Shown: in pieces, positions 5,847 to 45,186 of the stretch
Position numbering within the stretch: position 1 is the first letter of the stretch
Layout: every line of letters begins with the position of its first letter
IMG/VR virus record: IMGVR_UViG_2565956726_000008
DNA: 64,000 bases
Source: a virus
Lineage: Duplodnaviria > Heunggongvirae > Uroviricota > Caudoviricetes
Strand: one strand, 5' to 3'
Program-made: the position numbers and the translations under genes
Notes under the pieces: model-generated
The model's database searches: none
What the model was told of the DNA's origin: nothing
The model's input: only the letters and a program-made list of their open reading frames with translations

Positions 5847-6533
5847 GTGAATACTATGATCCATGTTCGTACAGGACAATTTGCTGCCGTGGTGAACGGT
5901 AAGCGCTATGAGTTTAATCCTTGCTTTGCTGCGATGGCTAAAATCGGCAACGATAGTGAGCTTGTCGAATATTTCGCACTTATCCACGGCGGCAAATATC
6001 CATCACGATTGCCAGCAGATCCAGACCTCCGCAATCGCATTATGGCGCGGTGTTATGGTGAGATAGTACAAACGTCAATGCGCATCCTGAAATGTTGCTC
6101 AGACGACGAAATAGCCCCGTTATTGGGTGAATGTAGGTCAACTTCTTCCGGCAAGTTACGACTAAAACCCGGACTGATGCCGACCAGTGACGTTATCACG
6201 CTGGCACAACATTGCATGTACCACGGTTTAATCGGTGACGGGCCAGAAGAAGACGCCGGAGAGATCCGGGAAGGGGAATATAAGCCGACTTTTAACGTGC
6301 TGGAATTCGTTTATTCTGCCGTAGCTCACCTGGGATTATCTGAATCAGAAGCGTGGAATATGACAATGACCGGATATAGGGCCGCTGTACGCGCTAAAAC
6401 GCCGCCAGAAGCAAGAAACAAACAAAAACGCCCAAATGTATTGCTGGATAAAAAGGCTTATGACGATGGAATGAATGGTGCTATGGAGATACTAAAAAGA
6501 ATGAAAAATCGCGAGCAAGAAAAAACCCGGTAG
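5847..6533 (+). CDS. tail assembly chaperone-like protein (putative)
   Basis: 228-aa ORF between major tail and tape measure genes; probable real start ATG ~5856. Confidence 0.35.
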   Translation: MNTMIHVRTGQFAAVVNGKRYEFNPCFAAMAKIGNDSELVEYFALIHGGKYPSRLPADPDLRNRIMARCYGEIVQTSMRILKCCSDDEIAPLLGECRSTSSGKLRLKPGLMPTSDVITLAQHCMYHGLIGDGPEEDAGEIREGEYKPTFNVLEFVYSAVAHLGLSESEAWNMTMTGYRAAVRAKTPPEARNKQKRPNVLLDKKAYDDGMNGAMEILKRMKNREQEKTR

Positions 6534-6558
6534 ATCCGGGCGTTTTTGTTAAGTTCGC

Positions 6559-6879
6559 TTATGCTATTTTTTCGTAAAGCACATTCATCTGGGTGCGAAT
6601 CACTGTTAATATATTGATTGCTGCGTTCTTATTAATGCGTTTATTCGCTACTATTTTTGTTTTCCCATCAATAACAACCAGATCTGCGTGCAATACATGG
6701 TTGAAGTTGACAATGTAATAATACTGTTTATCGCCAACATGTTGAACATATGCACCATTTAGATTTCCTTTATACCCACAATCACGCTCTGCGACACCGA
6801 AGTCAAATTCGCGGTTCATCTTGCGATTATATGCTACTTGTTTATGTTCCCATTTTCTCATCCATTCATCGCGTTTCAT
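6559..6879 (-). CDS. hypothetical protein, cargo gene 2 of lipoprotein pair
   Basis: 106-aa minus-strand ORF in AT-rich insert; 9-nt gap after the lipoprotein gene. Confidence 0.5.
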   Translation of the reverse strand: MKRDEWMRKWEHKQVAYNRKMNREFDFGVAERDCGYKGNLNGAYVQHVGDKQYYYIVNFNHVLHADLVVIDGKTKIVANKRINKNAAINILTVIRTQMNVLYEKIA

Positions 6880-6888
6880 GTTTCACCC

Positions 6889-7548
6889 TTAATTCCAGTT
6901 GCAAGCGTTTTTCACTTTGTCGATGTGGTTATAAAGACCATCAATGTTAAACACTGCTTTCTCAATGTCGCCAGCTTCCGGCACTGCTTCAATGATAAAT
7001 TGTTTTTCGTTAACCAGTTTTTTAATCATTGGGATGGCTTTTTTGCCGTCCCATAATCCAAGAGCTTTATAATTAGTTGACCGCCACCACTCAGTAGCTA
7101 CAGCTTTGTGATCGCCGATCCGGTAGTTAATATAAGTAGTGTCCCCAGCGTCAGTTACATGGTTTGACCATGCTACGAACATTTTTGTTTTATTACCCTG
7201 GCAAGCGATTGTTAATACAGGTTTGTTTTCATCCCGTGCTTTCAGTGTAGGGAAAGCATCAAGACTTCCGCTGAAATGTTCTGCTTTCACGAAAAGGAAC
7301 ACGTTTTTTGTGTCCTGCATATCATCTTTTCTTTCGACCACAAGCCACTGTTTACCAGCTTTTTCTTTTGCTAACTGTGCCTCATATGCGGCTTGTTTTG
7401 CTTGTTGTTCTGCAAGCCATTTAGCATTTTTCTCTGCTAATGCTTGTTGTTCTTGAGTGGTCACTATAGGCGCTTTTTCATTATCCTCATTGCAACCAAC
7501 CAGACCCAATACCGCCGCAATCATTGCCACTTTTGCTAACCGTTTCAT
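6889..7548 (-). CDS. outer-membrane lipoprotein (signal peptide, lipobox LVGC, Asn at +2), cargo gene
   Basis: N-terminus MKRLAKVAMIAAVLGLVGC-N; coiled-coil stretch then globular C-terminal domain; opposite strand to tail genes. Confidence 0.6.
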   Translation of the reverse strand: MKRLAKVAMIAAVLGLVGCNEDNEKAPIVTTQEQQALAEKNAKWLAEQQAKQAAYEAQLAKEKAGKQWLVVERKDDMQDTKNVFLFVKAEHFSGSLDAFPTLKARDENKPVLTIACQGNKTKMFVAWSNHVTDAGDTTYINYRIGDHKAVATEWWRSTNYKALGLWDGKKAIPMIKKLVNEKQFIIEAVPEAGDIEKAVFNIDGLYNHIDKVKNACNWN

Positions 7549-7675
7549 AACCCACCACGCTAACTTGATTTACTGACCATTCCCTTTGGCTTCTTTATAC
7601 AAAATGGAGTCGTTGAAGTAAAGCCATTTTGTATAAAATAGATACACAGATCACATTTTTGCATGAGGTTAAATC

Positions 7676-10018
7676 ATGGATACCAGTGTAGGTACAATTT
7701 ATTACGAAGTTGATGCGAAAACTAGTCAACTTCTCGTTGCACAACGACAGGCAGACCAGGCCTTTGGGCGTATAGAGCGCGGCGCAAAACAGGCTGACCG
7801 CCAGGTAAACACCCTGAAAACATCCATCAAGGCACTGACCAGGGTTATCCATTTGCTAATTGCTGCGGAGGCCGTGCGTCAATTCATGGATATGGCGGAG
7901 CAAGCAAAAATGCTTCGCGTAAAAATCAAAATGCTTACGGGCGATGCGGAGTCCGCCGGACGGGTTTTTGATGGCCTGAAAGCAATATCAAAAGAAACAG
8001 GCCAAAGCATGAAGGATACCGGGGATCTGTGGCAAGGCTTAGCTATCTCACTGAAGAACACGTCCGCCACTGAAGGGCAATTGCTTAACCTGGTAGGTAC
8101 GATTCAGAAAATGGGGGCATTAGGCGGCGCGTCAGCGGAACAGATGTCTAACTCAATGCGTCAATTCCGTCAGTCTATCGACGGCGGTGTTCTTCGTGCC
8201 GAAGAATTTAACAGCCTGCTTGAAAATACGCCGACCATCGTACAAACAATGGCCCGCCATATGGGATTATCAATGGGCCAGTTCCGCGCCGAAATGCTGG
8301 ACGGCAAGATCACGGCTGAAAGGATGGTTAACGCAATACAGGCGGCTACGCAGGAAACAAACGATAAGTTTGCTCAGTTGCCGCGCACATCCGGCATGGC
8401 TATCAATGAGCTTAAAGTAGAAATTATGGGCCTTGTTGAGCAGTTGGATGATCTTTTTGGCGTGTCAGATGGCGTTGTTTCAGCTATCGACTTGATCACG
8501 AAAGGCGTTAAAGGGCTTGGCGATGGCGCTAAATTCGCTAAAACCTGCTTCGACACACTCAAAACGGCTGGTAGCGAATTTATCGACATGTTTGATGATG
8601 TGGCTGTTAAGGCTGGAGAGGTGGCAGAGAAGATCATCGCAATGGTGACGCCAATCAAGGCGCTAATGGATGGCTATAAATGGATGAAGGAGGTAGTAGG
8701 AGAGCAAACCGACGAATATAACAGCAACTACGAGAAGAAATACGGGAAGACCGTTGGCAAGGTCATGCAACTACAGGATGATCTGACCGCAGCAATCCAG
8801 GCTACAGAAGAAGCAAGGAAAAATGAACAGAATGCTGCCAATGACGGAGCGATTACCGGATTCGACAAGCCAGTAGACAAGCCGAAAAAACAGAAAAAAG
8901 AGAAGAAATCGGAAGCTGATCGGCTTGGTGACAAAGGTATAAGCGTTTCTGATCAGTACAACAAAGACGCCGCCGCCATGCGCAAAGCGTTGGAGAACGG
9001 CAAGGCCATTGATGCTGCATTTGCCCAGGGTAAAATCACGCTCCTTGAGTACCGCGCCGCGCAAAAAGGGATCGGCAAGGAACTGAAAGAAGAATTAGCA
9101 CAAATTCCGGTAGATGAATTGCGTGATAAATGGTCACAAATAGTAAGCCCGATGGATCAGCTAAAAGGCGAAGTTGACCCCATCCAGCAGGCGCAAAATG
9201 AATGGGCCATCCGTAAGCAAATGCTTATAGACCTGGGCGCTACTGAAGCGCAACAGAAACAGGAATTGTTAGCCTATGAGCAACAGATCCGCGATCTGAA
9301 ATGGGAACAATGGCAGGCGCAAAGCGACACAAACGGCCTTATCGGTGATTGTGTTAATGGCCTTAAAGGCGGAATGAGTAATGCGCTTGTTGGCCTGTTA
9401 AACGGCACTCAATCATTGAGTGATGTTTTTGCTAACTTAGGAAGCAATATACTCGGCAATATCGGTAACAGACTCTCAGACATAGCTGCAAACTGGATAG
9501 CAGATCAGATCATGATGGAGACACAAAGCAAGGCCACGCAAACAAGTACAACAGCAAGCGCGGTAGCAGCTCAGGGAAGCATTGCTGCGGCGGCGGCCCC
9601 AGCAGCGGCGGCAACTGCGGCGTCAACTGGCGGTAGCTGGGCGGCGGCTGGTTCGGCGGCGCTCACTGCGATCATGTCGCTGGCTACGTCAATTTTCGGC
9701 GGCGGTCGCTTTAATGGTGGTAGCGTCATTGGTGGTAATATGTACCGCGTAGGGGAACACAACAGGCCGGAGCTATTCCAGACATCTAACGGCAATCAAT
9801 ATATGATCCCTGGCGAGAACGGCAGAGTTATTCCGGGCCGTGATATTGGCGGCGGTGGCGGTATTAGTATGCCTGTCAGTATCAGCATTCAGACCACGAA
9901 CGGATTCAGCGACGAAGACAGCCGCAGACTTGAATTAACAATGGAACGTGTAGCCATGAAAATGATAACAAGGGAATCTCAAAGACCAGGCGGAATGTTG
10001 CAACCTCGCCGCAAATAA
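7676..10018 (+). CDS. tail tape measure protein (prophage A)
   Basis: 780 aa, alpha-helical, Gly/Ala-rich C-terminal region; position before M. Confidence 0.8.
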   Translation: MDTSVGTIYYEVDAKTSQLLVAQRQADQAFGRIERGAKQADRQVNTLKTSIKALTRVIHLLIAAEAVRQFMDMAEQAKMLRVKIKMLTGDAESAGRVFDGLKAISKETGQSMKDTGDLWQGLAISLKNTSATEGQLLNLVGTIQKMGALGGASAEQMSNSMRQFRQSIDGGVLRAEEFNSLLENTPTIVQTMARHMGLSMGQFRAEMLDGKITAERMVNAIQAATQETNDKFAQLPRTSGMAINELKVEIMGLVEQLDDLFGVSDGVVSAIDLITKGVKGLGDGAKFAKTCFDTLKTAGSEFIDMFDDVAVKAGEVAEKIIAMVTPIKALMDGYKWMKEVVGEQTDEYNSNYEKKYGKTVGKVMQLQDDLTAAIQATEEARKNEQNAANDGAITGFDKPVDKPKKQKKEKKSEADRLGDKGISVSDQYNKDAAAMRKALENGKAIDAAFAQGKITLLEYRAAQKGIGKELKEELAQIPVDELRDKWSQIVSPMDQLKGEVDPIQQAQNEWAIRKQMLIDLGATEAQQKQELLAYEQQIRDLKWEQWQAQSDTNGLIGDCVNGLKGGMSNALVGLLNGTQSLSDVFANLGSNILGNIGNRLSDIAANWIADQIMMETQSKATQTSTTASAVAAQGSIAAAAAPAAAATAASTGGSWAAAGSAALTAIMSLATSIFGGGRFNGGSVIGGNMYRVGEHNRPELFQTSNGNQYMIPGENGRVIPGRDIGGGGGISMPVSISIQTTNGFSDEDSRRLELTMERVAMKMITRESQRPGGMLQPRRK

Positions 10019-10104: not shown

Positions 10105-10359
10105 TCACTTATGAGTGCCTTTCACGCCACATAACTTGTTATAGGCATGGTGCTCAACAATTAACCAAACCTTCAAATCTTCGCTAAACAGCCTCCAATC
10201 AAGATTGATATCCATTTTGTATCCGTAACCGTCGCGTAACTTTTTGGGGTAAACTTCTTTTCTCAGAAAGGCTTTAAGTAATTCCTTACCTTTCTTGATG
10301 ATCCGGTCCTGTGCGTTTTTCTGTGCTTTCAGATTTCTGTCAATCGCTACCAGTTTCAT
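10105..10359 (-). CDS. RelE/ParE-fold toxin-like protein (candidate)
   Basis: 84 aa, basic; C-terminal pattern DWRLF...VWLIVEHHAY resembles RelE/ParE family; second gene of two-gene operon. Confidence 0.4.
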   Translation of the reverse strand: MKLVAIDRNLKAQKNAQDRIIKKGKELLKAFLRKEVYPKKLRDGYGYKMDINLDWRLFSEDLKVWLIVEHHAYNKLCGVKGTHK

Positions 10360-10376
10360 AACTCACCCCATCATCC

Positions 10377-10532
10377 TTAGTTAAGTGCCTTCAGGAAGAA
10401 GTCCCGGTATTCATCTTCTTTCGCATTCATCATGAATTGACCGTATTTGAATGCGTCGTCGAAACCCTTAACGATTGCTATTTCCACTTGTTCGAATGCG
10501 TTATTTAGCATTACTACTACATAGCGTTTCAT
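10377..10532 (-). CDS. small acidic partner protein (candidate antitoxin)
   Basis: 51-aa ORF below the ORF-track size cut-off; AGGAGG RBS; stop 18 nt before the toxin-like start. Confidence 0.35.
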   Translation of the reverse strand: MKRYVVVMLNNAFEQVEIAIVKGFDDAFKYGQFMMNAKEDEYRDFFLKALN

Positions 10533-11406: not shown

Positions 11407-11655
11407 CTATAAGTTATCACGCAGATAATTAACGCCCTTATCAGTGACGAATGAATGGTTAACCTGGTTTTCATCCGTCATGATGATGAATAACTTTTCA
11501 TGTAGGTATTTCGCTTTCGGGTACAGCGTTAAACAGACCTGGTACAGTATCCCGCGCTCAATCAGCAAATCAATAAATTCGTGTTCATGATAACCGATGA
11601 GGCGGGCGGCCTGTTTCAACGTGTACACATAATCACCGTGATTGCGCCGCCCCAT
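11407..11655 (-). CDS. small HTH protein, gene 3 of M|L cassette
   Basis: 82 aa; helix-turn-helix-like stretch YTLKQAARLIGYHEHEFIDLLIERGIL. Confidence 0.45.
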   Translation of the reverse strand: MGRRNHGDYVYTLKQAARLIGYHEHEFIDLLIERGILYQVCLTLYPKAKYLHEKLFIIMTDENQVNHSFVTDKGVNYLRDNL

Positions 11656-11664
11656 GTTGCCGCC

Positions 11665-12012
11665 TTATTTATCGAATGCTGAAAGGTTATCGATACAGAA
11701 ATCTTTCGCCGCTTTTTCGTATTCGCGTTTTGCTTCTGGATCGTCAGCCGGGAAACCTTTTGCGTGTATTTCACCAGGGCAAGACTGGTCCATAGAATCT
11801 GCATAATAAGCAGTGAAGCTACCATTAATATCTTTCGGGTTCATATCTTCCACCTCATCAACTATCTGTACCGGATTAGCAGCATATTTCACTGGATGGC
11901 CTAAACTACATTCAAGAATCCTGCCTTCTTCCAGGGCTACTTCTTCGCTATCAAATAATCCGAAACACTCCTTGCTACCACTTAACCACACATCAAGACT
12001 GTATTTTTTCAT
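11665..12012 (-). CDS. hypothetical acidic protein, gene 2 of M|L cassette
   Basis: 115 aa from internal ATG with GAGG RBS (track ORF runs to 12114). Confidence 0.45.
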   Translation of the reverse strand: MKKYSLDVWLSGSKECFGLFDSEEVALEEGRILECSLGHPVKYAANPVQIVDEVEDMNPKDINGSFTAYYADSMDQSCPGEIHAKGFPADDPEAKREYEKAAKDFCIDNLSAFDK

Positions 12013-12181
12013 TTTTGTTAGCCTCATATTTGACAGGTTCGATCTGGTATCCCAAAAGGCGGTCATCCTCAGCAAGTAAAAGCGCGTCAACCAATGCTTC
12101 ACCCTCGTCGTCATACAGGGCGATAACCTTTTCCCTACCGTCTGTCATGAATACCGTCAACTTCCATAGCTTTTCAGTCAT
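11993..12181 (-). CDS. hypothetical small protein, gene 1 of M|L cassette
   Basis: 62 aa from ATG MTEKLWK (track ORF runs to 12301 from a TTG). Confidence 0.4.
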   Translation of the reverse strand: MTEKLWKLTVFMTDGREKVIALYDDEGEALVDALLLAEDDRLLGYQIEPVKYEANKNEKIQS

Positions 12182-12310
12182 AACGCACCTCCGCGCCATT
12201 TTGTTAACTATGCTTCCGTTTGAGTAAAATATACATATTGTAAAAACCGCGATCAATCCATTTTGGTATGATTTAGCGTGACGCAGATCACAGAATGACA
12301 AGGTGAGAAA

Positions 12311-14235: not shown

Positions 14236-17200
14236 ATGAGTAGCGGCGGCGGCAAAGCCAAAACACCAACATTATTGAACGATAACCTGTATCACAAACA
14301 GTTTTATCGTGTTTTAGATATTCTCAGCGAAGGGCCGATATACGGTCCGGTAAACCAGAAAGCGCCATTGAATGACGTGATGCTTAATGACACTCCTGTT
14401 ACTGACGCAAACGGGAATACATCAATTCCGGGGATTAGTATAGCCTGGCGCAACGGCACGGCTGACCAATCGCCGATTAATGGTTTTAACGCCATTGAGT
14501 CAACCGTTATTGTCAACGCAAAGGTAACTCACGACACACCAATAATCAGGACTGTTTCAGATCCAAACGTTACCCGCGTCAGGTTGAATCTTGGTGTTGA
14601 TGCTCTCGTTCAGTCAGATGAAAAGGGCAATCAATATAATACATCCGTCATGTTGATGGTTGATGTTAAACCGTCATCATCTTCTACGTGGTCGCTGATT
14701 AAAGACATACACATTGGCCCTGGTAAACAAAGCGGTGAATACCTGGAAGCTCACATCATTAAAGCGCCGGATGAAAAACCGTTTGATATTCGCGTTCGTC
14801 GCATAACACCAGACAGCAACGGCGATCTATTGCGGAATGATACGCGGTGGAGTAGTTACAGCGAAATAATAGATGATAATCTGTCTTATCCTCATACCGC
14901 TGTAGCTGGCGCCGTAATTGACCATGATCAGTATACTGATACGCCTACCCGCACCTATCACCTTCGCGGCCTGATTGTTGATGTGCCTGACAACTACAAC
15001 CCTGAAACGCGCACATATTCAGGTTTATGGCTTGGTGGATTTAAAAAGGCGTATACCAATAACCCTGCATGGCTTTTCCGGTATCTGGTTAAAAACGAGC
15101 GCTTTGGACTTGCTCGACATGCTGGTTACATTGATGTTGATGATGGCGCTTTGTACGTGCTTTCTCAATACTGCGATCAGTTGGTTGATGATGGCTATGG
15201 TGGCCTTGAACCTCGCATGACGCTTAACGCTTACATTACGGAGCAAATGAGCGCCCGCGACCTACTGGATAACATCGCAGGTATGTTCCGTGGTATCGCG
15301 TTATGGGACGGACAACGTCTTACCGTGATGATTGATGCGCCACAAGATCCAATCGCCACCATCACAAATGCAAACGTCGTTGATGGCGCGTTTACTCGTT
15401 CAAGTATCGCACGCGCAGAATGCTACAACGCCGTGATCGTATCCTGGACTGACCCTGAAAACGGCTGGGAGCAATCAAAAGAATATGTCGCAGATGATAA
15501 ACTAATCGCCCGTGATGGTTATAACGAAACCACGTTGGAGGCGTTCGGTTGCACTTCACGCGGGCAAGCGCACCGCGCTGGTAAATGGCTGATCGAAACA
15601 GCGAAACGCGAGCCGTCAAAATTCACATTTAAAATGGCCCGTGACGCCATTCACTTTACGCCGGGGGATATAATCGAGATCCTCGATAATAATCGCGCAG
15701 GCGCTCGTTTAGGCGGTCGCATCGTGGCGAACAATGGCAGAGCGATCACGGTCGACAAGGTTGATTCTGAATATATCGCGGCTGGCGACACCATCAGCTT
15801 ACTTGATAGCGATGGTAAATTTAAAAAACACCAGATCATCGGAGTTAACGGGAACATTATCACCCTTGCAGCCGCCCCGGCGTGGATTCGTAACGGCACT
15901 GTTTTTGCTGTATCAACCAACGCAGCAAAACCCGTTTTATGTCGAATCACCAGTGTAGCAGAAACAGAAAATAACAGCGTATACACCATCGAGGCCGCAC
16001 AGCATGATCCACATAAGCAGGCCGTAGTCGATAATGGCGCAATCTTCGAGATCAATAACGACACGCTTAATCACTTCCGCGTGCCGAACATTGAAAATCT
16101 GAAGGTGTTAAACGTTGGATCTGAAACGGTTCAATGTCGCGCAACATGGGAAACACAGACGACAACGCGTCGCCTGACCTTTGAGATTCGCGTGTATAAC
16201 GCCGAAGGCGCTGTAGTTAAAAGCTACGAAACCACGAATTACAGTTATGATTTTTATGGCATTGATGCTGGCAACTACTCATTAGGCATTCGTGGCAGAA
16301 ATGACACGGGCATGAAGGGTGCGGAAAGCATTGTCGATCTGGTTATTGGCGCACCAGCGGCCCCAGTTGGCGTTAATTGGGTTCCCGGTGTATTCCAGGC
16401 TACAGTTTACCCGATCAGCAGAACAACGCTCACCACTGATACCAGTTACGAGTTTTATTACTCAGGTGAAACGCAGATCACTGATCCGGCATCAATAACC
16501 ACTAAAGCACAATATACCGGGCGTGGTCATCAGTGGACGTTTGGCGGCATGAATACAGGTCACACATATTACGTTTATGTGCGCGCGCGTAACGCTTTTG
16601 GTGTGTCTGACTTTGTGGAAGCGTCAGGTAAGCCAACAGAAAACTTTGATGAAATTACCGATTACGTCACCAAAGACGTAATGAATTCCAAACAATTTAA
16701 AGAAATGGTTGGTGACATTAAAGATCTAGGCGACCGCACTGATCTTATCGAAAGCGCTACGAATGACCTTAAAACTGCTACTGACAACCTCAAAACTGCA
16801 ACTGATAATCTGACCAACATAACTGACGATTTAAGGACTGAAACTGACAACCTAACCATAGAAACAGGATCAATAAAAGCTGATACTGATACGCTCAAAA
16901 AAGAAACGGAAGATCTTTATAAAAAAGTTAAGGAAAACGCCGATGATATTGGACAGCATGAGTCGAGAATCGACTCGCTGGAGGTGTCTAGCGAAAAAGT
17001 TGGCAGCGAACTGGCGCAAGCAAAAGCAAGTCTGCAAAACGCCTCACTTGCTCTTATTAATAACTCGCTTGCACAGACTAACACTCGCGTAACTCTTACC
17101 GCTCAGTACAAGAAAGGCAGGACAGAGACGAAAGCGGAAATTGACCGCATTGACAACGTTATCGCTGAAGAGAAAAAAGCGACAGCGGAATCACTGGAAA

Positions 17201-19098
17201 CCATCACGGCAGAAATGAATGTGATGGACACAAACCTTAAAGGTCAGATCTCTAATGTGCAACGCGCAGTAGCTGACGAGGCCAGCGCCCGCGCTGAAGC
17301 TATTAACGGTGTAAATGCCTCAATAAGCAATCTTGACAAGAAAACTGACGCCAGCGTAAACCGTCTTGATCAGGCAATTGCAGACGAAACAAGTGCGCGT
17401 ACTCAGGCTATCAGCGACGTGAACGCAAGTATCTCAACACTTGACAAGAAAACTGACGCCAGCGTTAAGCGCCTCGATAATGCAATATCAGATGAAACGC
17501 AGGCAAGAAGCGACGCAATAACAGTGGTTAAAGCTGATTTAACAACGCTTGAAAATAACACAAATGCCAGTGTTAGCCGTCTTGATCAAGCTATCGCTGA
17601 TGAATCAAGCGCACGTGCTCAGGCGATATCAGGTATCAGCGCGACGCTTGGCGGCGTTAAAAGTGAGGTTGATAAAAACAGCGACGAGATAGATCAGGCG
17701 AAAGCAAGTCTGCAAAACGCATCTCTGGCGCTTATTAATAACTCAATGGCGCAAAGCAAGATGAGCACTGTTATTGAGGCGAAATACAGGAAAGGACAAA
17801 CAAAAACAAAAGCGGAAATAGCAAGGGTAGACACAGCAATCGCAGATGAGGCGAGCGCACGCGCAGAAGCTATTAGCGGGGTTAATGCGTCAATTTCCAC
17901 GCTCGATAGCAAGGTGACAAGCAACGTAACCAGGATGGATAAAGCGATCGCAGATGAGAAGAATGCACGCACTGACGCAATCAGCAGCCTTAACTCATCG
18001 CTTACCAGTACGATTAATTCGAAAGTATCCGAAGTGTCAACTGCACTTTCTACGCATGAAACATCAAGCGCGGAAAAATTTGGCCAGATCTCGGCATCTT
18101 TCGACGATGTAAACTCAAGCATCACGGAATGGTCACAGGCTATGGCAACGGCAGACGAGGCATTGTCAACCAGAATCGACCAGTTGAAAGTAACTATTAA
18201 CGGAAACACAACGGCGATAGAAACGACATCAAAAGCACTGACTGACTTCAAAGGTAACGTTGATGCGTCATATTCAATTAAGATTGCCACTGATAAAAAC
18301 GGTATGAAATACGCTACAGGAATGTCGCTCGGCCTTACTGGTAGCGGGACTAACGTTCAATCGCAGTGTATTTTCCTCGTTGACCGTTTCGTGCTTATGA
18401 CTGCGGCAGGTGGCTCCTATCAGACCCCGTTCTATGTTACTAACGGTGCTTGCTACATCCGTGATGCGTGGATCAGAGACGCATCAATCACTACCGCGAA
18501 GATTGCGCAGCAAATTCAGTCAACCAACTATAAAGCTGGTTCGGCTGGCTGGATGCTAAATAAAAACGGCAATGCGGAGTTCAACAACGTCACTGTACGC
18601 GGTACGGTGTACGCAACATCTGGTAAATTCACTGGTGAGATTCAGGCCACAAGCGGGAAGTTTAAAGGTACAGTAGAGGCAAAGTCATTTGTCGGTGACG
18701 TTGCTAACATGGGGGTTGGTCCAGATCGAGTGCTTGGGCATAACGGAAGTTATAGCGCAACCATCACATATAAAGACAGCACGGATAATGCATTGACGAA
18801 ATCAGTTATGCTTATGGCGACTATTTCATTAATGTCTGGTGAATATAGATCCACTTATAACGTAACGTTTAGTTGCGGAGATAAAAACAAAACAATTTCA
18901 TATTACGTGCCTTATGGTGGATGCACATTAACAGTGCAATGCGCTTTTTCTGGTTTAAAAGCATCAGATATTATCGGGAAAATATATTGTCCTCAAACAT
19001 CATCATCTGAAGGATACGCATATTGTACCGCGTTGTATTCTCCAACAATGATAGTAGCAAGAGGCACCGGATCATTTAGAACATCAACGACAGCATAA
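14236..19098 (+). CDS. host specificity / tail tip protein J with expanded repeat region
   Basis: 1620 aa; N-terminal ~990 aa collinear with lambda J (ISEGPIYGPV, FGCTSRGQAHRAGKWLIETA); central coiled-coil tandem repeats; distinct C-terminal domain. Confidence 0.85.
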   Translation: MSSGGGKAKTPTLLNDNLYHKQFYRVLDILSEGPIYGPVNQKAPLNDVMLNDTPVTDANGNTSIPGISIAWRNGTADQSPINGFNAIESTVIVNAKVTHDTPIIRTVSDPNVTRVRLNLGVDALVQSDEKGNQYNTSVMLMVDVKPSSSSTWSLIKDIHIGPGKQSGEYLEAHIIKAPDEKPFDIRVRRITPDSNGDLLRNDTRWSSYSEIIDDNLSYPHTAVAGAVIDHDQYTDTPTRTYHLRGLIVDVPDNYNPETRTYSGLWLGGFKKAYTNNPAWLFRYLVKNERFGLARHAGYIDVDDGALYVLSQYCDQLVDDGYGGLEPRMTLNAYITEQMSARDLLDNIAGMFRGIALWDGQRLTVMIDAPQDPIATITNANVVDGAFTRSSIARAECYNAVIVSWTDPENGWEQSKEYVADDKLIARDGYNETTLEAFGCTSRGQAHRAGKWLIETAKREPSKFTFKMARDAIHFTPGDIIEILDNNRAGARLGGRIVANNGRAITVDKVDSEYIAAGDTISLLDSDGKFKKHQIIGVNGNIITLAAAPAWIRNGTVFAVSTNAAKPVLCRITSVAETENNSVYTIEAAQHDPHKQAVVDNGAIFEINNDTLNHFRVPNIENLKVLNVGSETVQCRATWETQTTTRRLTFEIRVYNAEGAVVKSYETTNYSYDFYGIDAGNYSLGIRGRNDTGMKGAESIVDLVIGAPAAPVGVNWVPGVFQATVYPISRTTLTTDTSYEFYYSGETQITDPASITTKAQYTGRGHQWTFGGMNTGHTYYVYVRARNAFGVSDFVEASGKPTENFDEITDYVTKDVMNSKQFKEMVGDIKDLGDRTDLIESATNDLKTATDNLKTATDNLTNITDDLRTETDNLTIETGSIKADTDTLKKETEDLYKKVKENADDIGQHESRIDSLEVSSEKVGSELAQAKASLQNASLALINNSLAQTNTRVTLTAQYKKGRTETKAEIDRIDNVIAEEKKATAESLETITAEMNVMDTNLKGQISNVQRAVADEASARAEAINGVNASISNLDKKTDASVNRLDQAIADETSARTQAISDVNASISTLDKKTDASVKRLDNAISDETQARSDAITVVKADLTTLENNTNASVSRLDQAIADESSARAQAISGISATLGGVKSEVDKNSDEIDQAKASLQNASLALINNSMAQSKMSTVIEAKYRKGQTKTKAEIARVDTAIADEASARAEAISGVNASISTLDSKVTSNVTRMDKAIADEKNARTDAISSLNSSLTSTINSKVSEVSTALSTHETSSAEKFGQISASFDDVNSSITEWSQAMATADEALSTRIDQLKVTINGNTTAIETTSKALTDFKGNVDASYSIKIATDKNGMKYATGMSLGLTGSGTNVQSQCIFLVDRFVLMTAAGGSYQTPFYVTNGACYIRDAWIRDASITTAKIAQQIQSTNYKAGSAGWMLNKNGNAEFNNVTVRGTVYATSGKFTGEIQATSGKFKGTVEAKSFVGDVANMGVGPDRVLGHNGSYSATITYKDSTDNALTKSVMLMATISLMSGEYRSTYNVTFSCGDKNKTISYYVPYGGCTLTVQCAFSGLKASDIIGKIYCPQTSSSEGYAYCTALYSPTMIVARGTGSFRTSTTA

Positions 19099-19138: not shown

Positions 19139-19384
19139 TTATTTTTTACACCCATCATTTACACCAGAAAAATGGATAGGTAAATTACATTCACTGTCAA
19201 TAATTTTACCTTGTAGTTGTTTTTCTTTCCATGAGTCAGTATTGAAATAACTCGAACGTTGGTTATCAAGGCCAGTATCACCATATTGAGCAGTGCCAGC
19301 ATCACTCTTATCTGTCGAATTTACAGAAGCAAAAGCACCAAAAGACAGAGCTGATAAGATGCAAGCAACAATTAGTTTTTTCAT
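19139..19384 (-). CDS. small secreted protein (signal peptide, two Cys), cargo at lom-equivalent position
   Basis: 81 aa from MKKLIVACILSALSFGAFA; AT-rich; between J and tail fibre. Confidence 0.5.
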   Translation of the reverse strand: MKKLIVACILSALSFGAFASVNSTDKSDAGTAQYGDTGLDNQRSSYFNTDSWKEKQLQGKIIDSECNLPIHFSGVNDGCKK

Positions 19385-19581
19385 TGTATTCACCTTACTG
19401 TTTGTTTTACTGTCATTTGTTGTTCGTGATGATCCACCCATCCGATGAGCAAATCACCGCAGAAGCTATCATTTCGTATGTTGATATAGATCAAAAAATA
19501 CACTATGTATAAGCCCAAAGTGTAACACAGATCACAAAATGGTAGAATTGTTTAGTTAATTAACAAAACGGAGTTATTGCG

Positions 19582-22102: not shown

Positions 22103-23107
<1,005 letters not shown>

Positions 23108-23584: not shown

Positions 23585-24958
23585 GTGACCGCTTTTTCTA
23601 CCCTGAATGTTTTGCCTCCCGCCCAACTCACGAACCTTAATGAGTTGGGTTATTTAACCATGACGCCGGTGCAGGCCGCCGCGCTTCCGGCGATCCTTGC
23701 CGGAAAAGATGTTCGCGTGCAGGCGAAAACCGGCAGCGGCAAAACGGCGGCTTTTGGCCTCGGCTTGTTACAGCAAATTGATGCGTCGCTATTTCAAACC
23801 CAGGCTTTAGTGCTGTGTCCTACGCGTGAACTGGCGGATCAGGTGGCAGGTGAATTGCGTCGGCTGGCGCGTTTTCTACCAAATACCAAAATTTTGACGT
23901 TGTGCGGTGGTCAACCGTTCGGTATGCAGCGTGATTCGTTGCAACATGCGCCGCATATTATCGTGGCAACGCCGGGCCGTTTGTTGGATCATCTGCAAAA
24001 AGGCACGGTATCACTGGATGCGTTGAATACGCTGGTGATGGATGAGGCCGACCGCATGCTGGATATGGGATTTAGCGACGCCATTGATGATGTCATCCGT
24101 TTTGCGCCAGCATCTCGACAGACGCTTCTGTTTTCGGCAACCTGGCCGGAAGCCATCGCCGCAATCAGCGGACGAGTGCAACGCGATCCTTTAGCGATTG
24201 AAATTGACTCAACAGATGCTCTGCCACCTATTGAACAACAATTTTATGAGACATCCAGCAAAGGCAAAATTCCGTTGTTGCAACGGTTATTAAGTTTACA
24301 TCAGCCATCCTCTTGCGTGGTGTTTTGCAATACCAAAAAAGATTGCCAGGCTGTCTGCGACGCGCTGAATGAAGTAGGGCAAAGTGCATTGTCGTTACAC
24401 GGCGATCTGGAGCAACGTGATCGCGATCAGACCCTGGTACGTTTTGCTAACGGTAGCGCCCGTGTACTGGTTGCGACTGATGTTGCTGCGCGAGGTCTGG
24501 ATATTAAATCGCTTGAGCTGGTGGTGAACTTTGAGCTGGCGTGGGATCCTGAAGTTCATGTACATCGCATCGGTCGTACAGCGCGTGCAGGAAATAGCGG
24601 TCTGGCGATCAGTTTCTGTGCCCCGGAAGAAGCACAGCGGGCCAATATCATTTCTGACATGTTGCAGATAAAACTTAACTGGCAAACGCCGCCAGTTAAT
24701 AGTTCCATTGTGCCGCTGGAAGCCGAAATGGCAACGTTATGTATCGATGGCGGGAAAAAAGCCAAAATGCGCCCGGGTGATGTATTAGGTGCGCTGACAG
24801 GAGATATCGGGCTTGATGGCGCAGATATTGGCAAAATCGCCGTGCATCCGGCGCATGTCTATGTCGCGGTGCGTCAGGCTGTTGCTCATAAAGCATGGAA
24901 ACAGTTACAGGGCGGGAAGATTAAAGGAAAAACGTGCCGGGTGCGGTTATTAAAATAA
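23585..24958 (+). CDS. dbpA: ATP-dependent RNA helicase DbpA
   Basis: 457 aa; DEAD-box motifs (AKTGSGKT, DEAD, SAT, HRIGRTAR); matches E. coli DbpA. Confidence 0.9.
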   Translation: MTAFSTLNVLPPAQLTNLNELGYLTMTPVQAAALPAILAGKDVRVQAKTGSGKTAAFGLGLLQQIDASLFQTQALVLCPTRELADQVAGELRRLARFLPNTKILTLCGGQPFGMQRDSLQHAPHIIVATPGRLLDHLQKGTVSLDALNTLVMDEADRMLDMGFSDAIDDVIRFAPASRQTLLFSATWPEAIAAISGRVQRDPLAIEIDSTDALPPIEQQFYETSSKGKIPLLQRLLSLHQPSSCVVFCNTKKDCQAVCDALNEVGQSALSLHGDLEQRDRDQTLVRFANGSARVLVATDVAARGLDIKSLELVVNFELAWDPEVHVHRIGRTARAGNSGLAISFCAPEEAQRANIISDMLQIKLNWQTPPVNSSIVPLEAEMATLCIDGGKKAKMRPGDVLGALTGDIGLDGADIGKIAVHPAHVYVAVRQAVAHKAWKQLQGGKIKGKTCRVRLLK

Positions 24959-25086: not shown

Positions 25087-26022
25087 TTATTTCACTTCAA
25101 CCACATTCAGTCGTAACTCATCCAACTGATTTTCATCTTCTTCAGGCTGCCAACCCGCCGGTTGTAGAGGGAGCTCTTCGCGATCAAACGCCAGATCACC
25201 CCCGTTAACCACTTCAGAACCGTGGGTAATGCCTTTGAAATCGAACAGGTTGGTATCGCACAGATGCGACGGCACCACATTCTGCATCGCGCTGAACATC
25301 GTCTCGATACGCCCTGGATAACGTTTATCCCAGTCACGCAACATGTCAGCAATCACCTGACGTTGCAGGTTAGGCTGTGAACCGCACAGATTGCACGGAA
25401 TAATCGGGAATGCTTTTGCATCGGCAAAGCGCTGAATATCTTTCTCGCGGCAGTAGGCCAGCGGACGAATCACAATATGTTTGCCATCATCGCTCATCAG
25501 TTTCGGAGGCATACCTTTCATCTTGCCGCCGTAGAACATATTTAAGAACAACGTTTGCAGGATATCGTCACGATGGTGACCCAGCGCGATCTTCGTCGCT
25601 CCCAGTTCCGTTGCGGTACGGTAAAGAATTCCGCGACGAAGACGAGAACACAGTGAGCAAGTGGTTTTGCCCTCCGGAATCTTCTCTTTCACGATACCGT
25701 AAGTGTTCTCTTCCACAATCTTGTACTCAACGCCCAGCTTTTCAAGATACTCGGGCAGAACGTGTTCCGGGAAGCCCGGTTGTTTTTGATCGAGGTTGAC
25801 AGCCACCAGCGAAAAATTGATTGGCGCGCTTTGCTGCAAATTGCGCAGAATTTCCAGCATGGTATAGCTGTCTTTACCCCCGGAGAGGCAAACCATGATG
25901 CGATCGCCTTCTTCAATCATATTGAAGTCAGCAATGGCTTCGCCCACGTTACGACGCAGACGTTTTTGTAATTTGTTCAGGTTGTATTGTTCTTTCTTTG
26001 TAATTTGTTGATTTTCTTGCAT
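25087..26022 (-). CDS. ttcA: tRNA 2-thiocytidine biosynthesis protein TtcA
   Basis: 311 aa; PP-loop SGGKDS and CxxC motifs; matches E. coli TtcA. Confidence 0.9.
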
Positions 26023-26073: not shown

Positions 26074-27309
26074 CTACGATAACCGCGCATTCAACATGGC
26101 TATCTGTTCGTCGTTCATGTCATCAATCCACATACCGTAAATTTCATACACCATCTGCGCAGTTTCATGCCCCATTTGGCTGGCTATAAATGCCGGGTTC
26201 GCTCCTGCCGTCAACAGCCAGCAGGCAAAAGTATGCCGCGTATGGTACGGATTACGGCGGCGAATACCAGCACGTTTTACTGCTGCATTCCACCTTGCCC
26301 CCAAACTGCTTACCGAGTAATAAGGTTTTTGTTTTCCGTTACACACCCTGGGCATGAAAACAAAATGCAGTTTTTGCTTTTCGGTTCTGCCGTACTCCCG
26401 ATGATAAAAGGTGATTTCGCTTTTGCGATGATGCCCGGTCAGTTTGTATTGCTCCTTCAGTGCTTCAAGAGCAGGCTGCAGTAGTGTTACTGTTCGGATC
26501 CCGGCATTTGTTTTTGGGGGACCGAACATATCAAGTATCGTCAGGTTTCTTCTGACATTCACTATTCCCTTTTCGAGATCCACATCCTCCCACGCCAGAG
26601 CTGCCAGTTCCCCGTGACGAAGTCCTGAGTAAACGGCAAATTTCCACAAGTTCTGGCTCTGTCCTTTTTCACTTTCCATTAATGCATTGAATTCTGTTTT
26701 AGATAACGGATCAGGCTTTATTCTGTTTCGCTGTAATTTTTTTACTCCTTCAAATGGTTTGGTTGATATAAATCCCGACTGATACGCAAAACGCAACAGC
26801 GAACAGAGCAGGGCGATATAGTTATCAACTGTGCGCACGGTTCTTCCTTTTTTGTTGGATCTTGGATTATCCAGGTAAAGCGTTTCTCCATGCAGCAGTT
26901 CATTCCGGTAGTTTAAGATATCGCTATAACGAATATGTGATATCGGGGTACTTTCACAAATTATTATTCTGAGTGTTTTTAATTGTGATTTCGTTTTCTT
27001 CATTGTGTTTGTTGTTAACTCTGTCTCTTTAATTTTTGTCCAGATATCACAAAGCTCTCCGAACGTTTTTATGACTCTCGTTGTCACCATTTTTGCCCCA
27101 GTGCTGGACTGGGGAAAACGTCTTAAATACTCAAATTCACCGGAGTTTATTTCATGAACTATCAGCGCTCTTAAATTTCCGGCCTTTTTAATATTACTGT
27201 TTGTAATCTCCCAGCCTTTTAATGTTTCCCGACATCGTTTTCCTCGAAACATGAACCAGATGCGAATGTATCTACCTCTAATCTCGACACCTGTTGGTAA
27301 TTTAGACAT
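26074..27309 (-). CDS. intR: Rac prophage tyrosine integrase
   Basis: 411 aa; C-terminal R...HxxR...Y catalytic region; adjacent to ttcA as in K-12 Rac. Confidence 0.9.
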   Translation of the reverse strand: MSKLPTGVEIRGRYIRIWFMFRGKRCRETLKGWEITNSNIKKAGNLRALIVHEINSGEFEYLRRFPQSSTGAKMVTTRVIKTFGELCDIWTKIKETELTTNTMKKTKSQLKTLRIIICESTPISHIRYSDILNYRNELLHGETLYLDNPRSNKKGRTVRTVDNYIALLCSLLRFAYQSGFISTKPFEGVKKLQRNRIKPDPLSKTEFNALMESEKGQSQNLWKFAVYSGLRHGELAALAWEDVDLEKGIVNVRRNLTILDMFGPPKTNAGIRTVTLLQPALEALKEQYKLTGHHRKSEITFYHREYGRTEKQKLHFVFMPRVCNGKQKPYYSVSSLGARWNAAVKRAGIRRRNPYHTRHTFACWLLTAGANPAFIASQMGHETAQMVYEIYGMWIDDMNDEQIAMLNARLS

Positions 27310-44725: not shown

Positions 44726-45186
44726 GCAGAGTAACCGCGATTATCTCCGCTCTGGTTATCTGCATCGTCGTCTGCCTGTCATGGGGTGTTAATCATTACC
44801 GTGATAACGCCATCGCCTACAAAGAACAGCGCGACAAAAATGCCAGAGAACTGAAGCTGGCGAACGCGGCAATTACTGACATGCAGATGCGTCAGCGTGA
44901 TGTTGCTGCGCTCGATGCAAAATACACGAAGGAGTTAGCTGATGCGAAAGCTGAAAATGATGCTCTGCGTGATGATGTTGCCGCTGGTCGTCGTCGGTTG
45001 CACATCAAAGCAGTCTGTCAGTCAGTGCGTGAAGCCACCACCGCCTCCGGCGTGGATAATGCAGCCTCCCCCCGACTGGCAGACACCGCTGAACGGGATT
45101 ATTTCACCCTCCGGGAACGACTGGTAATGATGCAGGCCCAACTTGAAGGTGCTCAGCAATACATAACCGAGCAGTGTTTAAAGTAA
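44722..45186 (+). CDS. Rz: i-spanin Rz
   Basis: 154 aa; N-terminal TM and coiled coil; overlaps R stop. Confidence 0.9.
44942..45127 (+). CDS. Rz1: o-spanin Rz1 (embedded in Rz, +1 frame)
   Basis: 61-aa lipoprotein [20 protein letters not shown] with PPPPP tract, entirely inside Rz. Confidence 0.85.

Follow-up and report, generated by a model that had tools for sequence, protein, structure and literature searches.

Why should two genes on the minus strand interrupt the tail cluster of a temperate coliphage, exactly where the tail assembly chaperone gives way to the tape measure gene, and what might their products do in a lysogen? The question is posed by IMG/VR virus record IMGVR_UViG_2565956726_000008, a stretch of 64,000 nucleotides (nt) from a member of the Caudoviricetes, referred to throughout in its full length as the window, in which a gene for a 219-amino-acid (aa) lipoprotein and another for a 106-aa protein occupy this junction (Table 1). 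The evidence assembled here suggests that the larger product is a lipid-anchored, periplasmic paralog within the VasI/TagO family of the T6SS (type VI secretion system), with an IalB-like fold in its structural model, and that the two genes together make up a probable moron in a slot that is filled differently in related loci.

It is clear that both open reading frames (ORFs) are genuine genes that evolve as proteins: the ratio of nonsynonymous to synonymous substitution rates (dN/dS) is 0.08-0.26 for the lipoprotein gene and 0.26-0.34 for the 106-aa gene, the latter measured against a homolog 72% identical. The original prediction for this DNA, drawn from its letters and translated ORFs, had placed two minus-strand ORFs with a 9-nt gap at the chaperone/tape-measure junction, and its positions were exact. 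It had also held that the island is richer in AT than the flanking tail genes and proposed a comparison of codon usage; GC content (0.414 for the lipoprotein gene and 0.368 for the 106-aa gene, against 0.47-0.51 in the flanking tail genes) and GC content at third codon positions (GC3; 0.368 and 0.355, respectively, against 0.44-0.60) both drop across the two genes.

Family membership of the lipoprotein

The 219-aa protein matches PF11319 (Pfam VasI; 'Type VI secretion system VasI, EvfG, VC_A0118') with an E-value of 5.6e-16 and 59.2 bits, against a gathering cut-off of 26.5, in an alignment that spans positions 25-184 of the 184 in the profile. Its only PHROG match is to PHROG 1848 (1.8e-57), of which it is a member, and RefSeq already names the prophage gene TagO. 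In direct comparison the VasI of the E. coli T6SS is 33% identical to it over 113 aa (E 7e-12). Cys116, Cys216 and Trp218, which are the only invariant columns in an alignment of 146 family sequences, are all present, the latter two directly after the beta-sandwich domain. The likeness to T6SS VasI/TagO (VCA0118; PF11319/DUF3121; TIGR03360) extends to the C-terminal domain, the cysteine pair, the C-terminal AC-x-W, predicted periplasmic export and overall size.

The differences are equally instructive. On TIGR03360 the window protein scores 47 bits and other phage-borne homologs 47-76, all below the cut-off of 124.2, whereas the genuine VasI of EDL933, whose gene sits between tssH and tssA, scores 257.4; a protein below this cut-off that nonetheless matches PF11319 is therefore taken as a member of the family and a paralog, not as a T6SS VasI. 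The window gene lies outside any T6SS cluster, its neighbours being phage tail genes. Where VasI has a signal peptide and the RLxCYD motif, the prophage-carried protein has a lipobox and a helical stalk: in the general form RLxC[YF][DE] this N-terminal motif occurs in 49 of 153 family representatives, in EDL933 VasI and in the homologs of P2-like, Labrenzia and Brucella phages, and it is absent from the clade to which the window protein belongs. That clade is well set apart. A phmmer search of 1.84 billion cluster representatives returned 1167 relatives at E<=1e-3, among which the clade stands out at 65% and 57% identity, followed by sequences at 41% or less, and a repeat, word-indexed homolog search with alignment recovered the same 12 clusters only. 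The clade is present on 18 contigs in IMG/VR and in none of the GTDB species-representative genomes, and its nearest outgroup (P0019), when used as a query, had no matches in viral or genome contigs.

The suggestion in the original prediction that the function may be new does not hold in the sense of an uncharacterised novelty, since the protein is a member of Pfam VasI/TagO and PHROG 1848 and carries the RefSeq name TagO; family and type of element are both known, and the protein is in the catalogues already. The RefSeq label on these prophage genes overstates current knowledge. The function of TagO/VasI is still listed as 'Unknown' in a 2026 review (PMC13584744).

Export signal and predicted structure

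The N-terminus of the lipoprotein reads MKRLAKVAMIAAVLGLVGC, with NED next; its basic residues number three, its hydrophobic core is 12 residues long, and the lipobox L-V-G-C ends in Cys19 with Asn at position +2. Lipoprotein signals of the PROSITE PS51257 type have a basic n-region, an uncharged h-region and the motif [LVI][ASTVI][GAS]C with its cysteine at 15-35. All of these are found in the 219-aa protein, which a lipobox scan identified as the sole credible lipoprotein ORF between positions 1 and 27000 of the window. Gly18 and Cys19 are invariant across the clade and position +2 is occupied by N, E, R, D or G. Aspartate at this position is the Lol-avoidance signal in lipoprotein sorting, and because the +2 residue varies, so presumably does the membrane of residence; what appears to be conserved is a periplasmic location rather than a given membrane. 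The textbook lipoprotein signal described in the original prediction, LVGC followed by a residue other than Asp, is thus present, and the Asn does predict sorting to the outer membrane for this particular protein, but that part of the signal is not conserved within the clade. An N-terminal hydrophobic segment is found in 123 of 153 family representatives and a lipobox in nine, three of them from the window clade; a lipid anchor would appear to be unusual within the VasI family.

An AlphaFold2 model built from the 12-sequence clade alignment (mean predicted local distance difference test score, pLDDT, 69.3) starts with a disordered tether, continues in a single long helix and ends in a beta-rich domain. 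The globular C-domain envisaged earlier is therefore supported by the model, and the accompanying coiled coil appears solely as a predicted single helix. A 203-aa variant of TagO has, in place of this stalk, a linker that is also helix-prone but differs in sequence and is shorter. An Lpp/OprI alanine-zipper match to the stalk was set aside as insignificant (13 bits against a cut-off of 43). A Foldseek search of the model against the PDB yielded no significant match, and no solved structure was found by sequence for either the single protein or the 146-sequence profile. IalB (PDB 3dtd) and a flagellar LPHT-ring component (8z5n_A) resemble the window protein at the level of fold only, with 7-8% identity and no known function in common. 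The Pfam IalB model (PF06776) does not match the window protein, and on the VasI homolog of a P2-like phage it scores 20.6 bits against a cut-off of 22.1.

A probable exchange slot with a shared launcher

The contents of the chaperone/tape-measure junction were tabulated across 33 related loci, the counts referring to loci and not to independent events, and at least five different fillings were found. TagO is followed by the 106-aa gene in nine loci, plus the window, and by a gene for a 124-aa lipoprotein in 13; the 203-aa TagO stands alone in two; an unrelated exported protein of 160 aa is followed by the 106-aa and 124-aa genes in four; and an exported 137-aa protein stands alone in two (mEp021 gp63 and MagusPhagus). 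The TagO of the 13 loci with the 124-aa gene is 94-98% identical, and alleles of TagO at 94-95% identity are joined to one second gene or the other. Signal peptides of type I are present in the 160-aa and 137-aa proteins, every alternative first-gene product in the slot is exported by a predicted signal, and the 124-aa lipoprotein, a second-gene product, is likewise. This last protein (L005 2632-3006 (-) and L010 5345-5719 (+), both outside the window) begins MKNIIKAVLIGVMALALTGC followed by ARS, belongs to phrog_18614 and has sub-threshold matches to BamE and DUF7738, and represents further envelope-targeted cargo.

The 125 nt upstream are near-identical for the 219-aa TagO, 203-aa TagO and 160-aa first genes, and the identity stops about 30 nt into the sequence that encodes the signal peptide. 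First genes in the slot share the signal-peptide start MKRLAKVA... and differ in their mature domains (219-aa TagO, 203-aa TagO, 160-aa and 137-aa proteins). This pattern suggests that the cassette recombines at its 5' end within the sequence that codes for the signal peptide, for which reason the shared part may be regarded as a fixed 'export launcher'. Within it lies a candidate sigma-70 promoter, kept in five of seven aligned slot variants, which a consensus scan missed because the last base of the -10 hexamer is A rather than T. A CRP-like half-site upstream (TGTGA...) was considered and rejected, as its second half-site fits poorly. At the other end, 18 nt past the stop of the 106-aa gene, a bidirectional terminator is common to the DUF6246 gene on the plus strand and the inserted genes on the minus strand. 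A conserved upstream region with a plausible promoter, together with this terminator, gives the unit the anatomy of a moron, and its AT-richness, opposite strand and variable slot filling point to the same classification. The mEpimmI group uses Nus-dependent antitermination (PMC11893012), which would let late transcription pass through the insert.

Table 1. Features of the minus-strand insert and its flanks (positions in the window)
Feature	Position	Strand	Basis or remark
DUF6246 gene, left flank, tail-assembly-chaperone position	5847-6533	(+)	PF19759, 2e-54
Bidirectional intrinsic terminator	6525-6541	both	GC-rich stem-loop and T-run on each strand
106-aa ORFan	6559-6879	(-)	9 nt (6880-6888) 3' of lipoprotein gene
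Lipoprotein gene, 219 aa	6889-7548	(-)	VasI/TagO family
VasI-type beta-sandwich, residues 68-215	6904-7347	(-)	AlphaFold2 (predicted)
Ala/Gln/Lys-rich helical stalk, residues 31-63	7360-7458	(-)	AlphaFold2 helix (predicted), pLDDT ~70-80
Signal peptide, residues 1-19, lipobox LVGC	7492-7548	(-)	sequence and lipobox scan; Cys19 codon 7492-7494
Divergent intergenic region, conserved 'launcher'	7549-7675	(-)	alignment A5
Candidate sigma-70 promoter	7594-7622	(-)	-35 TTTACT 7622-7617, 17-nt spacer, -10 TATAAA 7599-7594
Tape measure gene, right flank	7676-10018	(+)	PF20155 TMP_3, 6.2e-49; PHROG 1538

The left-hand neighbour is assigned to the chaperone position because a tail tube gene (PF06199) precedes it. 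A prophage of E. coli M1/5 matches the region at 99.3% identity, and the tail genes are 81-87% identical to those of phages mEp021, mEp010, mEp554 and MagusPhagus. These phages make up the mEpimmI group of Nus-dependent, non-lambdoid temperate coliphages (PMC11893012), and the window unit accordingly lies in an mEp021-like E. coli prophage.

VasI homologs in other phages

Capture of VasI-like genes by phages does not appear to be confined to this group. A tblastn search found VasI homologs in 24 phage records, and the four phage homologs that were translated all match PF11319 and carry type-I signal peptides with no lipobox. The homolog of Brucella phage BiPBO1 is immediately downstream of the repressor gene, that of a Labrenzia phage is beside cI, that of Pasteurella phage Pmp14 lies between the chaperone and the tape measure, and that of a P2-like phage follows D/ogr at the prophage end. 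These positions are typical of genes expressed in lysogeny or of morons and suggest independent recruitment in at least four other phage lineages. In P2-like phage 500465-2 (L015 2669-3899) and in P0029 a cytoplasmic zinc-ribbon with a membrane segment comes before the VasI member or is fused with it; mEp021 gp66 is a zinc-ribbon protein in the post-tape-measure moron block, and a recurrent association of such proteins with VasI members is possible.

What the lipoprotein might do in a lysogen

Three comparisons bear on function. VCA0118, the VasI of V. cholerae, is predicted to be exported and is dispensable for secretion of Hcp and VgrG, and it is needed for efficient killing of target cells (PMC3166118); it therefore acts on delivery by the tail-like machine and not on its assembly. 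The second comparison is with HK97 gp15, the earliest moron to be described, whose product acts in exclusion and blocks genome injection by superinfecting phages (PMC3594210). Its gene occupies the same slot, between tail assembly chaperone and tape measure, and shares with the window unit the anatomy of a moron and a product directed to the envelope; gp15 is, however, a small YebO-like inner-membrane protein of proven exclusion activity, with no kinship in sequence or fold to the window lipoprotein, whose role is a prediction.

The third is with SDIC4B of Serratia, which is reported to have a VasI-like fold with no BLAST similarity and which alone gave 10-200-fold protection against phage (bioRxiv 10.1101/2024.01.28.577318). 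Its sequence, taken from the plasmid table of the preprint, includes a Sec signal peptide and two cysteines. Like the window protein it is exported and periplasmic, with two cysteines; it has about 150 residues when mature, and a dispensable exported neighbour gene accompanies it. Unlike the window protein, SDIC4B has no lipobox, is chromosomal and is BrxR-associated, and the likeness in fold is taken from the preprint alone. The window unit has no association with BrxR or a defence island, its neighbours being tail genes. Both SDIC4A and SDIC4B, as given in supplement 3, begin with a Sec signal peptide, a point on which the text of the preprint is silent. SDIC4B also matches phrog_3429 (4e-13), so that SDIC4B-like proteins too are borne by phages.

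One plausible explanation, which we take seriously while judging it to fall somewhat short of probable, is that the lipoprotein is expressed in the lysogen and hinders the passage of an incoming phage through the envelope. The lysogen would express the gene from its own candidate promoter, the lipoprotein would hang from a membrane into the periplasm, and its protein-binding module might there interfere with the incoming tail tip or with the DNA conduit as it crosses the envelope. The outcome would be post-adsorption superinfection exclusion, comparable to that of HK97 gp15 in position and logic and to SDIC4B in fold class and compartment. Several points weigh against this reading. PADLOC gave no match; the sole phenotype of a true family member is in T6SS killing, not in phage resistance (PMC3166118); the structural model is of moderate confidence (pLDDT 69) and was built from a shallow alignment; and the promoter is a consensus-like candidate. 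The proposed kinship with SDIC4B is likewise weakened, as hhalign comparison with the VasI family gave E-values of 0.41 and 0.44 with shallow and deep profiles, SDIC4B has no Pfam match, and it falls in phrog_3429 rather than in PHROG 1848. Moreover, the GF66.2 prophage carries TagO together with a Cor-like lipoprotein, and a role in exclusion would therefore be additional, not required.

Alternative functions

A different view is that the lipoprotein is a host-fitness or envelope factor, concerned neither with phage nor with T6SS and comparable to Bor, Lom or IalB or to proteins of envelope homeostasis, which helps the lysogen in the gut. This is unlikely, though it retains an appreciable chance of being correct. 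Against it stand the missing Pfam IalB match, the fact that IalB itself has no established molecular function, and the variability at +2, which argues against exposure at the surface. The slot is otherwise filled with exported ORFans of phage type and not with known virulence genes.

Rather doubtful, in our estimation, is a form of lysogenic conversion related to T6SS, in which the paralog modulates the host system or protects the lysogen against attack by T6SS or tailocins. The homology to T6SS VasI is real, VCA0118 alters the efficiency of killing and not secretion (PMC3166118), and E. coli does have a T6SS cluster that contains VasI. Against this stand the TIGR03360 score, far beneath both the cut-off and the genuine E. 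coli VasI, the absence of the RLxCYD motif from the window clade and the lack of nearby T6SS genes. A homolog is also carried by a phage of Brucella, a genus that is not known to possess a T6SS. VasI-like-fold proteins have, in addition, been reported outside T6SS clusters (bioRxiv 10.1101/2024.01.28.577318).

The original prediction had started from Cor and Llp, the outer-membrane lipoproteins with which phages block their own receptors, and had remarked that the window protein is three times larger. Its sense that the protein is distinct from these factors was sound, and holds also for the small exclusion lipoproteins of this very phage group. Members of the mEpimmI group do exclude through small lipoproteins encoded after J, Lpp021 and Lpp010 (PMC11893012), and no such small lipoprotein turned up in the lipobox scan of the window prophage, where TagO has a lipoprotein signal with a residue other than Asp at +2. 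To that extent a Cor-like role is conceivable. Like the window protein, Cor, T5 Llp, Lpp021 and Lpp010 are phage lipoproteins in or near the tail cluster; they are small (61-82 aa, with 72 for Lpp021 and 82 for Lpp010), are encoded after J and act on receptors, in contrast to a 219-aa protein of VasI fold in another slot, which shows no similarity to Cor, Lpp021 or Lpp010 and has no PHROG Cor match. The notion of TagO as simply an enlarged receptor-blocking factor is at odds with the GF66.2 prophage, which has TagO alongside an Lpp021-like or Cor-like small lipoprotein (the window prophage has TagO only), and for the same reason TagO as a substitute for the group's small exclusion lipoprotein was ruled out. 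Both Asp and Gly occur at +2 in the clade, so that residence in the outer membrane is not conserved, and homologs elsewhere in phages are predicted to be soluble periplasmic proteins. Near-identical TagO alleles, moreover, adjoin diverged tape measure genes (the N-terminal region is 45% identical in L007), and TagO therefore does not track the adjacent tail gene. Blocking of the phage's own receptor has, on this evidence, a slim chance of being right.

The original prediction further credited the lipoprotein with a partner, and the two genes might accordingly be conceived as an obligate two-component system, whether an envelope sensor with a cytoplasmic effector or a toxin-immunity pair. A gap of 9 nt divides them, a candidate promoter and a terminator are common to both, and their ribosome-binding sites are separate, that of the 106-aa gene being the Shine-Dalgarno sequence AAGGGTGA, and co-transcription is predicted. 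The pair also recurs in nine other loci, one of them diverged (77% and 84% identity). Set against this are the 13 loci in which TagO precedes the 124-aa lipoprotein, the two in which it stands alone and the four in which the 106-aa gene lies behind the 160-aa protein; the 106-aa gene is thus found both with and without TagO. As it is swapped for the 124-aa gene or missing beside near-identical TagO alleles, and occurs where TagO does not, it is best regarded as an independent, freely reassorting cassette and not as a dedicated partner. Lacking both a signal peptide and a membrane segment, the 106-aa protein could not directly meet a periplasmic domain. Searches of Pfam, PHROG, NCBIfam and PADLOC gave no match to it, nor did tblastn against 50,697 phage records; its homologs form three clusters only, all from E. 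coli, and its structural model is of low confidence (pLDDT 65.6) with no meaningful fold match. An obligate system of the two genes is very improbable.

That the lipoprotein serves in the structure or the assembly of the tail, for which location within the tail cluster and nothing else speaks, is scarcely credible, given the opposite strand, the lipoprotein export signal and the absence of the gene from mEp021, MagusPhagus and mEp554, which make functional virions. No homology to a tail structural lipoprotein was found, a finding that the original prediction had named as grounds for its refutation.

A broader idea and its significance

A broader idea would join these observations, and it is offered as a speculation that we think doubtful. 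The VasI/TagO beta-sandwich might serve quite generally as a module directed at tail-like puncturing devices during their passage through the envelope: it would aid delivery in T6SS, and its paralogs would have been captured by at least five unrelated lineages of temperate phages to block incoming tails and perhaps T6SS or tailocins. The capture site in the mEpimmI group would then be a dedicated exchange slot with a fixed promoter, ribosome-binding site and first half of a signal peptide, downstream of which recombination would exchange the mature domains.

The question of what VasI/TagO does dates back to 2011, and lone phage-borne paralogs, remote from T6SS genes, would allow the periplasmic role of the fold to be assayed simply, with one gene. 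If the lipoprotein does exclude phages, it would constitute a direct link by homology between a T6SS accessory family and anti-phage defence, where the link through SDIC4B is a claim of fold alone. It would likewise add a second, mechanistically different layer of exclusion in a group of phages often met with in the human gut, and would mark the HK97 gp15 slot as a general location for defence cargo aimed at the envelope. Should phages prove unaffected by it, the lipoprotein would become a candidate for lysogenic conversion in T6SS or envelope biology.

Other inserts and the remainder of the window

Several antisense moron blocks interrupt the tail operon in this group of phages, and the window has more than one. 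A second AT-rich minus-strand insert, between the tape measure and a minor tail gene, comprises ORFs at 10105-10359 (-) and 10377-10532 (-), in which a 51-aa ORF (phrog_29810) comes before a protein with a ParE-like toxin domain (PF24732, 9e-12); the insert is possibly a moron of the toxin-antitoxin kind, and related phages have other small genes at that site. A third minus-strand block in the tail cluster, at 11407-12301 (-), contains ORFs of 82, 149 and 102 aa, the first of which is annotated by RefSeq in the M1/5 prophage as KilAC-domain antirepressor-like.

The J-like host-specificity protein of 1620 aa, encoded at 14236-19098 (+), has near-repeats in its C-terminal third, for example 'NASISTLDKKTDASV.RLD.AI.DE..AR..AI', and repeats of variable length in the same region of J have been reported for the group (PMC11893012). 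Just after this gene, at 19139-19441 (-), a protein of about 81 aa would begin at an internal start, MKKLIVACILSALSFGAFA then S; it has a type-I signal peptide with no proper lipobox and a weak match to phrog_2243 (1.6e-4), and it is at this site that mEp021 and mEp010 hold tested exclusion lipoproteins.

The first prophage ends near 21.7 kb and is followed by host-like genes, and then, from an integrase on, by a second prophage. The host-like genes, recognised by eye from their translations, are presumably zntB-like (22124-23107), dbpA-like (23585-24958) and ttcA-like (25087-26022 (-)). The integrase at 26074-27309 (-) opens the second prophage, which fills the remainder of the window and includes, at 44942-45127, a likely spanin lipoprotein of the Rz1 type.

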